Shown piece by piece: positions 21,581 to 22,531 of a stretch of DNA of 32,000 nucleotides. Positions within the stretch are counted from its first letter, which is position 1; each line of letters begins with the position of its first letter. The translations under genes were made by a program, and so were the position numbers. The DNA is taken from positions 90,001 to 122,000 of the forward strand of contig NZ_CP054059.1 in the NCBI RefSeq assembly GCF_021057185.1, written 5' to 3'. The notes beneath the pieces were generated by a model. The model was given only the letters and a program-made list of their open reading frames with translations. It searched no databases and had not been told where the DNA came from. The stretch comes from Candidatus Absconditicoccus praedator (lineage in GTDB: Bacteria > Patescibacteriota > Gracilibacteria > Absconditabacterales > Absconditicoccaceae).

Positions 21581-21605
21581 AAAAAAGCCCCGGAAAAACC
21601 GGGGC
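21581..21605 (-). terminator. Intrinsic terminator of dapD (reverse strand)
   Basis: The reverse strand reads GCCCCGG-ttttt-CCGGGGC followed by TTTTTT, beginning ~20 nt after the dapD TGA. Confidence 0.8.
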
Positions 21606-21624
21606 TTTGTGGGAAAAGTGGATT

Positions 21625-22467
21625 TCACGGCCTCAACAGTTCGTTGATGCCGACCTTGGCGCGGGTTTTTTCGTCTGCATACTTGATGATTACCGCGCAG
21701 TAGAGGCTGTGGCTACCATCATCAGCCGGCAGGTTGCCGGGGACTACCACAGCGCCTTCCGGAACTCGTCCGTAGTGGACTTCACCGGTGGTCCGATCAT
21801 AGATCTTCGTGCTCTGGCCGATGTAGACGCCCATGGAGATGACTGCACCGCGGCCGACGATCACTCCTTCGACGATCTCCGAGCGGGCCCCGATGAAACA
21901 CCCATCCTCAATGATGGTCGGATTGGCCTGCAGCGGCTCGAGCACGCCGCCGATACCGACGCCGCCGGAGAGATGGACATTTTTGCCGATCTGGGCGCAG
22001 GAGCCGACAGTGGCCCAGGTATCGACCATAGTGCCCTCGTCAACATAGGCGCCGATGTTTACATAGGAAGGCATCAGCACCACCCCGGGGGCGATGTAGC
22101 TGCCATGGCGTGCAGCTGCTGGTGGCACCACTCGTACGCCGGATTCGCGGAGGGCATTCTCGTCCCAGTCGGCGAACTTCATCGGAACCTTGTCGAAGAA
22201 GTTGGTGACACCGCCGTGCATCAGACGGTTGTCGTGGAGGCGGAAGGAGAGCAGCACCGCCTTCTTCAGCCACTCATTGACCTGCCAACCGTTGCTGCCC
22301 GGCTCGGCGACCCGCGCCTGGCCGCTGTCGAGCTGCCGCAGGGCTTTAGTCACAGCATTGCGGATTTCCGTAAGGGTGTCGTTCGGGTTGAGTTCATCTC
22401 GTCTCTTGAACGCTTCTTCGATGATTTTTCTTGTATTGTCGGAGAAGTTACCAACATCAGCAATCAT
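21625..22467 (-). CDS. dapD: 2,3,4,5-tetrahydropyridine-2,6-dicarboxylate N-succinyltransferase (DapD), proteobacterial type, 280 aa
   Basis: Near-collinear with the E. coli DapD sequence as I recall it: [132 protein letters not shown]. Strongly GC-rich. 31 Gly, none encoded by TGA. The stop codon is TGA. Confidence 0.9.
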
Positions 22468-22503
22468 GCTACCTCCATTTCTTATGCATCACAAAGGTAC
22501 ACT

Positions 22504-22531
22504 CTTATAATCATAAAGAAATAAATGTCAA
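22504..22531 (-). promoter_or_regulatory. Sigma70-like promoter of dapD
   Basis: Reverse strand: TTGACA (22531-22526), 16-nt spacer, TATAAG (22509-22504). GGAGG (22476-22472) lies 4 nt before the ATG at 22467. Confidence 0.55.

Follow-up and report, generated by a model that had tools for sequence, protein, structure and literature searches.

The window studied here (the whole stretch of DNA analyzed, 32,000 nucleotides, positions 90,001 to 122,000 of contig NZ_CP054059.1) belongs to the chromosome of Candidatus Absconditicoccus praedator and carries a minus-strand dapD gene that, in our assessment, was probably acquired by a real horizontal gene transfer (HGT) from Halorhodospira of the H. 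halophila group, i.e. from the prey genus of this organism. Ca. A. praedator M39-6, a soda-lake isolate, is a cultured member of Absconditabacteria (SR1) and an obligate predator of Halorhodospira halophila (PMC9698310, PMC11452946); it is metabolically dependent on its host (PMC11452946). The gene appears to represent a new and well-resolved case of a known kind of predator HGT, trimmed to the open reading frame (ORF), partly ameliorated, and apparently constrained.

The host backbone reads TGA as glycine (code 25). ORFs of at least 100 residues in the window encode 16,389 amino acids with translation table 25 versus 3,649 with table 11, a 4.5-fold difference. TGA makes up approximately 50–100% of the glycine codons of the backbone genes, and TAA or TAG is the stop in 35/35 of those checked that reach a stop codon. 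The ThrRS and the Y-family polymerase (UFX82631.1) translated with table 25 were 100% identical to NCBI proteins of Ca. Absconditicoccus praedator.

Read with the standard code, the ORF list gives a minus-strand frame at 21625–22467 that encodes 280 amino acids followed by TGA. An initial annotation, made from the sequence letters, had described this ORF as a GC-rich proteobacterial-type dapD, and both halves of that description held. The product matched the TIGR00965 dapD equivalog with 464.4 bits (cutoff 375.4), residues 13–279 aligning to positions 3–269 of the 271 in the profile, and it matched the DapD profile NF008808 with 384.8 bits (cutoff 204). It also matched the solved structures 1KGQ and 3BXY (E = 2e-125) and was collinear with 1KGQ. 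The GC content of the gene is 0.592 and that of its third codon positions (GC3) is 0.726. The bins of 400 nt between 21601 and 22400 have a GC content of 0.60–0.62, compared with 0.15–0.36 in almost all other bins of the window, and the backbone lies at approximately 27% versus 59% for dapD. Internal TGA is absent, and the 31 glycine codons are GGC (19), GGT (7), GGG (3) and GGA (2). Codon counts reproduced the earlier contrast between no TGA among these codons and 11 of 11 in the IS481-family transposase of the window. That dapD stands alone, as noted initially, was also found by us, since neither the Pfam scan nor the gene tables showed any other diaminopimelate (DAP) or lysine gene in the 32 kb. 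Exact-sequence look-ups of the 280-residue protein and of its TGA-free neighbors returned no records, and scans for tRNA and Rfam families over the window and two GC-elevated spacers gave nothing at threshold.

The features of the dapD locus on which the following paragraphs draw are listed here in window coordinates; all are on the minus strand.

22602–22629, minus strand: candidate promoter-like hexamers TTATCA and TATATT with a 16-nt spacer (consensus scan, 9/12 matches).

22472–22476, minus strand: GGAGG Shine-Dalgarno (SD) motif, 4 nt upstream of the dapD ATG, seen in the sequence.

22432–22452, minus strand: in-frame insertion of 21 nt (GNFSDNT) behind codon 5, which none of the Halorhodospira DapDs has (protein comparison with P0004, P0005 and P0006).

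22357–22467, minus strand: the most AT-shifted and most diverged 5' part of the gene, approximately 37 codons, homologous to the donor N-terminal helix region.

21809–21840, minus strand: 32-nt stretch identical to a Halorhodospira dapD allele (exact-match scan).

21625–21627, minus strand: TGA codon at the same position as the donor stop, a glycine codon in the host.

21584–21608, minus strand: intrinsic terminator, a hairpin of 10 pairs (7 G-C) with a T-run behind it; it starts 16 nt downstream of the TGA (terminator scan).

21340–22467, minus strand: code-25 frame of 375 residues, DapD plus a 95-residue tail, ending in TAA at 21340 (table-25 ORF list).

When the protein was compared with 5.8 billion proteins, the best real matches were Halorhodospira DapDs with 81–89% amino acid identity: 89% for a Halorhodospira cluster (P0004) that contains named proteins of this genus such as WP_238633184.1 and WP_201170603.1, 88% for H. 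halophila, 83% for H. abdelmalekii, and 81% for H. halochloris. A neighbor-joining tree placed the predator DapD inside Halorhodospira with the H. halophila group, alongside P0004, P0005 and P0006. Past the first 50 alignment columns, the identity between the predator and the H. halophila protein was 94%. Donor DNA was obtained via exact look-ups, and dapD was 81–82% identical in DNA to the gene of H. halophila SL1 (CP000544.1:1587149-1587970) and to a Halorhodospira metagenome contig. The operon glnD-dapC-dapD-dapE is kept in three Halorhodospira-type loci. Since the predator DapD is nested in the H. halophila group and the donor gene lies in this operon context, the direction of the transfer was from the prey genus to the predator. 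The suggestion of an inter-phylum transfer, possibly from a host or prey, is thus borne out by the nesting of the protein; the sequence comparison and phylogeny that the initial annotation proposed as a check put the donor clade in Halorhodospira and not in a DapD clade specific to the candidate phyla radiation (CPR).

Some matches were set aside. The nominal top matches (P0001–P0003, 392–439 residues) proved to be duplicated or misassembled versions of ordinary DapDs and not read-through relatives, and an apparent sister strain with 95% identity was the same strain with TGA translated as Trp. Besides the RefSeq entry of dapD itself, there was no Absconditabacteria-type DapD among the best matches of the 5.8 billion proteins. 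A scan of a genome collection with the full DapD gave relatives of 64–73% identity among the matches listed, no Halorhodospira among them, in which universally conserved motifs were matched.

By analogy with the DNA-uptake route proposed for the sister genus Vampirococcus (PMC8080830), prey DNA might have been taken up during feeding via type IV pili and ComEC, and the prey dapD might then have been integrated through illegitimate recombination.

Prey DNA is abundant in the co-culture, and the possibility had to be considered that prey reads were joined into a predator contig by the assembly. The public run SRR15691272 has also been assembled separately with a different assembler, and two contigs of that assembly are 100% identical to the window over 18258–21838 and 21811–32000. 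On the former lie the last 214 nt of dapD together with the terminators, two small ORFs and HsdM; the latter has the first 657 nt of dapD plus 9.5 kb of predator genes. Both junctions of dapD with predator DNA, at the 21.58-kb and 22.53-kb sides where the initial annotation wanted support, are therefore reproduced, from reads that are possibly the same as those of the genome. According to BLAST, the two contigs (L086 and L087) end and overlap at 21811–21838, inside the 32-nt stretch shared with Halorhodospira. A break within dapD, at a stretch common to the prey gene, is what a chimera might leave; if the sample contained prey DNA, a branching of the k-mer graph would also be expected at this point. 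Against a chimera, both junctions come at 100% identity from the different assembler, and the GC-rich block lies within the contig, predator sequence bordering it at both ends. The gene has only 82% DNA identity to Halorhodospira dapD, the dapC and dapE flanks are missing, and substitutions in dapD show a 10:1 AT-ward bias. We regard a chimera or contamination as effectively excluded.

Homology to the donor DNA is confined to the dapD ORF, from ATG to TGA. When the 100-nt flanks, the SD included, were compared with the donor dapC and dapE regions, the similarity was not above that of shuffles. On the 5' side, the gene is bordered by a 280-nt spacer with a GC content of 12–20%; on the 3' side, a stretch of approximately 600 nt that includes two terminators and another atypical ORF has a GC content of 40–48%. 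The abrupt drop to backbone level that had been described for both gene ends is accordingly seen at the 5' end and not at the 3' end. The terminator behind dapD has a fold energy of −20.4 kcal/mol (z = −4.2) and nothing corresponds to it in the donor operon; further terminators with such a GC stem are present in the backbone, e.g. at 9653–9677 and 31668–31693. The promoter-like hexamers are weak and a candidate only, of a type, with 9/12 matches, that is not enriched over shuffles in the AT-rich backbone.

The SD had been called native in style. The GGAGG motif is real, but the style is not that of the host. An SD motif (GGAGG or GGAG, at −8 to −11) was found in four of the 24 window genes, namely g5, ORF21050, dapD and g23, which are exactly the GC-elevated ORFs (0.36–0.59) without TGA-Gly codons. 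Backbone genes showed none, either in the window (0/19) or in flanking or relative loci (0/16; 0/35 in total).

At its 5' end, the predator gene is longer than its relatives through the 21-nt insertion, the protein having 280 residues compared with 273 in Halorhodospira. Over donor codons 1–30 the GC content is 0.44 in the predator versus 0.60 in the donor, in line with the intermediate value noticed initially, and there are 14 predator-specific amino acid changes; the N-terminal helix region is the least conserved part of the DapD family. The further suggestion that a local 5' region had been grafted onto the gene did not hold. Codon for codon, the N-terminus can be aligned with that of the donor (M-x-A-D-[IV] ... 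K-[IV]-I-E-E-A-F, donor MAADI-QKVIEEAF), and its peculiarity consists of the insertion together with AT-ward and non-synonymous drift. As for the idea that the AT-rich 5' coding sequence opens the ribosome-binding site, the unpaired probability was 0.45–0.63 compared with 0.43–0.56 in constructs with the donor coding sequence (CDS), a small and inconsistent difference.

With its ORF-exact boundaries the gene has a cassette-like architecture, which would also be expected if dapD had come second-hand. In that case a mobile element or phage of Halorhodospira, lower in GC, would first have picked up the gene, cut it down to a cassette of promoter, SD, ORF and terminator, and shifted it towards AT, and the predator would have received it only recently. 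Expression in a standard-code host would suit the SD, a TGA as stop, and a gene free of TGA-Gly codons. In addition, the neighboring g20 resembles membrane proteins of a phage 'moron' family (phrog_2169, 4e-8), and there are phages whose predicted partners include CPR as well as standard-code bacteria (PMC10746230). On the other hand, there was no close dapD in IMG/VR or in GenBank phages, where the best matches (66–71%) were ordinary proteobacterial copies, and viral contigs contained no relatives of the neighbors ORF21050 and g20. A paralogue of ORF21050 lies at another place in the predator genome, and the dapD flanks have the 12–20% GC of predator spacers. It is very unlikely that a mobile element of the prey carried and altered the gene before its arrival.

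To describe the changes since the transfer, substitutions were polarized with two sequences of the H. halophila group and one outgroup. The predator branch carries 64 unambiguous changes, 49 of them GC->AT and 5 AT->GC, compared with 21 changes (6 GC->AT and 3 AT->GC) on the sister stem. GC3 has fallen from 0.88 in the donors to 0.73 in the predator gene, and this fall is partial amelioration under the AT pressure of the recipient. In codons 31–273, the GC->AT changes comprise 30 synonymous and 8 non-synonymous ones (neutral expectation 37–42% synonymous; omega approximately 0.18, p ~1e-6). The first 30 codons show a ratio of 5 to 6 (omega approximately 0.6), not different from neutral. These codons, the most variable segment of the family, belong to the N-terminal domain, which does not form the active site of DapD; that site is formed by the central and C-terminal domains (PMC3281039). 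In an alignment with 57 proteobacterial DapDs, the predator protein kept 120/120 invariant columns and 165/165 columns conserved at 90% or more. As judged from these substitution patterns, codons 31–273, and with them the catalytic two-thirds of the protein, have stayed under purifying selection (omega approximately 0.18), with all conserved positions intact, and this points to a gene long resident under constraint at the protein level. It would follow that dapD is translated and useful today or was so until recently.

When the fall of GC3 from 0.88 is modeled as a two-state relaxation with the backbone value of approximately 0.2 as its end point, it corresponds to approximately 0.08 substitutions per site per lineage. 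The synonymous divergence (pS) of the backbone gene HsdM from a relative, contig k141_59491 of ENA ERZ27266011 (L088), is 0.197, half of which is of the same order. Since the two values agree to this extent, the transfer was neither very recent nor ancient. The relative is 94–95% identical at the nucleotide level in HsdM and a 190-residue ORF (compared with window 9830–19814), and the residence of dapD may have lasted approximately as long as the split of these two Absconditicoccus lineages, which are approximately 94% identical in DNA. The closest Halorhodospira dapD contig comes from ERZ27265998, an accession near that of this relative.

The TGA at the end of dapD was not mentioned in the initial annotation. 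Columns 894–899 of the stop-region alignment read CCGTGA versus CCATGA, and in the donor operon this TGA overlaps the ATG of dapE (ATGA), the donor gene tables giving 5822 as the end of dapD and 5819 as the start of dapE. Because the host reads TGA as glycine and the next in-frame stop is 95 codons off, translation cannot end at the donor stop. The 375-residue code-25 product is identical to the RefSeq protein WP_240006096.1 (P0365). Its 95-codon extension traverses both terminators, antisense to ORF21050; no homology was found for the tail, and AlphaFold predicted the 375-residue product with low confidence (mean pLDDT 52.6), the tail having a pLDDT of 26–31 and no predicted secondary structure. 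The DapD family ends after the C-terminal helix, at approximately 273 residues, which the gene in host code, with 375 residues, does not; nor does it have dapC/argD or dapE alongside within the 32-kb window.

Either read-through would yield the 375-residue protein, or the terminator works and the product, approximately 16 residues longer than DapD, would be freed by ribosome rescue at the end of the mRNA. Read-through with glycine, if it occurs, is expected to yield peptides such as INELLRPGNPLFPQSPGF. An efficient terminator would give an mRNA without a stop codon, on which ribosomes run off approximately 16 codons past the TGA and need to be rescued. We put forward with considerable doubt that dapD is a domesticated prey gene that keeps its unrepaired UGA stop while translation ends by such run-off, followed by rescue. 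If this were true, the code change would be a leaky rather than an absolute barrier to gene flow from prey, and DapD would let the predator act on the tetrahydrodipicolinate and succinyl-CoA of its prey. ORF21050 shares the layout of dapD, perhaps a sign that this genome has a small gene class in which the ends of the proteins are set by the end of the transcript.

Several observations weigh against the interpretation of dapD as a transferred and constrained gene. The TGA is unrepaired, although a single G->A change, in the favored direction, would suffice for TAA, and there is no backup stop for 95 codons. With an efficient terminator, the mRNA would be stopless and tmRNA tagging could destroy the protein. 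The original GenBank annotation lacks a CDS at dapD, since its numbering runs consecutively from HsdM (UFX82625) to the 97-residue ORF at 22790–23083 (UFX82626). In the relative with approximately 94% identity, other genes lie downstream of HsdM; the region is rearranged and this is a single contig. The window holds no partner in the DAP pathway, and the organism depends metabolically on its host (PMC11452946). No second copy of a predator-type dapD was found in the 5.8 billion proteins or among the metagenome matches listed, where a scan with the predator-specific N-terminal 66 residues gave 59% as the best match. Changes before and after the transfer are not fully separable, and an unsampled donor of lower GC would weaken the selection test and place part of the AT-ward drift before the transfer. 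The unrepaired TGA fits uneasily with constraint; it implies either an extended or rescued product that functions sufficiently or a recent loss of the constraint.

The possibility exists, then, that dapD was dead on arrival, an accidental piece of prey DNA that cannot be expressed properly because UGA is read as glycine and that decays slowly. The open stretch behind the TGA, the solitary position of a pathway gene, the GenBank annotation without a CDS here, and the absence of dapD from the corresponding place in the close relative all suit a passenger, and aberrant read-through of foreign genes has been proposed as a consequence of recoding (PMC8080830). A decaying passenger would not be expected to retain an intact ORF when approximately 15% of its GC third positions have changed, nor to show 30 synonymous against 8 non-synonymous GC->AT changes outside the N-terminus where neutrality predicts approximately 40% synonymous (p ~1e-6). 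None of the 165 conserved columns is altered, the donor flanks are trimmed exactly to the ORF, and an SD and a terminator stand on either side. We thus consider an inert passenger unlikely and favor a prey gene that was kept under constraint.

Standing alone, and with a changed N-terminus, 7 inserted residues, and an added tail at the C-terminus, dapD might also have been co-opted for another acyl-transfer reaction, as the initial annotation proposed. Against this proposal stand the retention of every conserved DapD column (165/165), those of the active-site-forming central and C-terminal domains (PMC3281039) included, the 94% identity to the prey enzyme outside the N-terminus, and the concentration of the changes in the N-terminal domain, outside the active site. 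Co-option is thus highly improbable. Nothing in the sequence indicates a new specificity, and the chemistry is most probably unchanged, i.e. the predicted succinyl-CoA-dependent N-succinylation of tetrahydrodipicolinate.

The remaining features of the window are as follows.

3159–3545, plus strand: g5, a GC-elevated ORF with an SD; promoter TTGACA-16-TATAAT at 3082–3109.

7570–8424, minus strand: IS481-family transposase with rve and rve_3 domains; 11/11 glycine codons are TGA.

20357–20779, plus strand: g20, a 140-residue membrane protein with four helices; phrog_2169 ('moron'), E = 4e-8; TGA is 1 of 10 glycine codons.

21050–21511, plus strand: ORF21050, 153 residues, convergent with dapD; promoter TTGACA-16-TATATT at 20985–21012.

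22790–23083, minus strand: g23, a GC-elevated ORF with an SD, 97 residues (UFX82626).

24440–26041, minus strand: UmuD-like S24 peptidase (126 residues) and Y-family polymerase (405 residues), an operon-like pair.

31376–31760, plus strand: segment downstream of topA with a GC content of up to 0.47 and two strong hairpin terminators (31409–31430 and 31668–31693).

The promoters of g5 and ORF21050 are near-perfect sigma-70 promoters. ORF21050 ends in TGA where a 51%-identical homologue ends, with a strong terminator at 21530–21555, 16 nt later; in code 25, its frame continues to 21703, into the antisense of dapD. It lacks a GenBank CDS and gave no Pfam or PHROG match, and its family is tiny, consisting of UFX83414.1, a paralogue with 35% identity encoded in this genome, and a single relative of 148 residues. 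No relatives of g20 were found in IMG/VR contigs. In the segment at 31376–31760 there was no tRNA, tmRNA or Rfam family at threshold, PyrR being the best with 31.8 bits versus a gathering score of 54. The UmuD-like and polymerase pair sits in a very reduced genome, and the closest polymerase outside the strain is 54% identical. Contig L085 of the separate assembly ends exactly at 7570, which fits a multi-copy IS481 element.

The type I restriction-modification region is highly variable between Absconditicoccus lineages. The relative L088 keeps HsdM without the HsdR, NYN and KAP-NTPase genes and HsdS, and has ClpB upstream and an S8 peptidase and AspRS downstream. A direct repeat of approximately 69 nt, at 17234–17302 and 18222–18290, surrounds a segment of approximately 990 bp with a 189-residue ORF (17317–17886). 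This segment is absent from the relative, which has a single repeat copy, and represents either an insertion in the window or a deletion in the relative.

These results bear on whether predatory and episymbiotic bacteria keep genes from their prey; here the pair is defined and cultured, and the donor belongs to the prey genus. They also provide a natural test case for the proposal that UGA recoding isolates a genome from foreign genes, since dapD crossed the code boundary, kept its UGA stop, and looks constrained. For annotation, the gene is skipped in GenBank and appears as a fusion-like product of 375 residues in RefSeq. A literature search gave no paper pairing Absconditicoccus with dapD; the original description (Yakimov et al. 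2022) lay outside the scope of that search.

Compared with solved gamma/beta-proteobacterial-type DapDs, the predator protein has approximately 70% identity. Its match to the DapD structures 1KGQ, 1KGT, 2TDT and 3TDT, to the Escherichia coli structure 3BXY, and to the Yersinia pestis structure 3GOS is full-length (E ~1e-125, residues 13–279), and the N-terminal domain, the left-handed beta-helix and the C-terminal helix are all present. Unlike in the solved proteins, the code-25 product has its 95-residue tail fused straight onto the C-terminal helix, the element that in DapD orders over CoA (PMC3281039). The Halorhodospira DapD belongs to the same TIGR00965 family and its gene is collinear with that of the predator in DNA from ATG to TGA; the predator gene differs from it in GC3 (0.73 versus 0.88), in the absence of dapC and dapE as neighbors, and in having its own SD and terminator.

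The situation of the predator resembles that of the whitefly and its symbionts (PMC8659303), where a metabolically dependent partner likewise has an isolated DAP-pathway gene of foreign origin; in the whitefly the steps that complement it have been documented, whereas for the predator the search for partner genes covered the 32-kb window. Code-11-compatible phages predicted to infect Absconditabacteria and Gracilibacteria (Liu et al. 2023, PMC10746230) share with dapD the lack of in-frame TGA in hosts where TGA means glycine. Such phages mostly avoid TGA stops or place another stop close behind (PMC10746230), unlike dapD, which has none for 95 codons.

The closest parallel is Vampirococcus lugosii, in which 126 genes were gained by HGT, compensating for gene loss (Moreira et al. 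2021, PMC8080830). Both V. lugosii and Ca. A. praedator are Absconditicoccaceae that prey on purple sulfur bacteria and for which DNA uptake is proposed; unlike in the Vampirococcus case, the donor of dapD is the prey genus of a cultured pair. UGA recoding has been proposed to make imported foreign genes read through, and this was predicted for these predators (Moreira et al. 2021, PMC8080830). The dapD gene is a concrete case of the read-through predicted for Vampirococcus, yet with apparent constraint at the protein level instead of inactivation.

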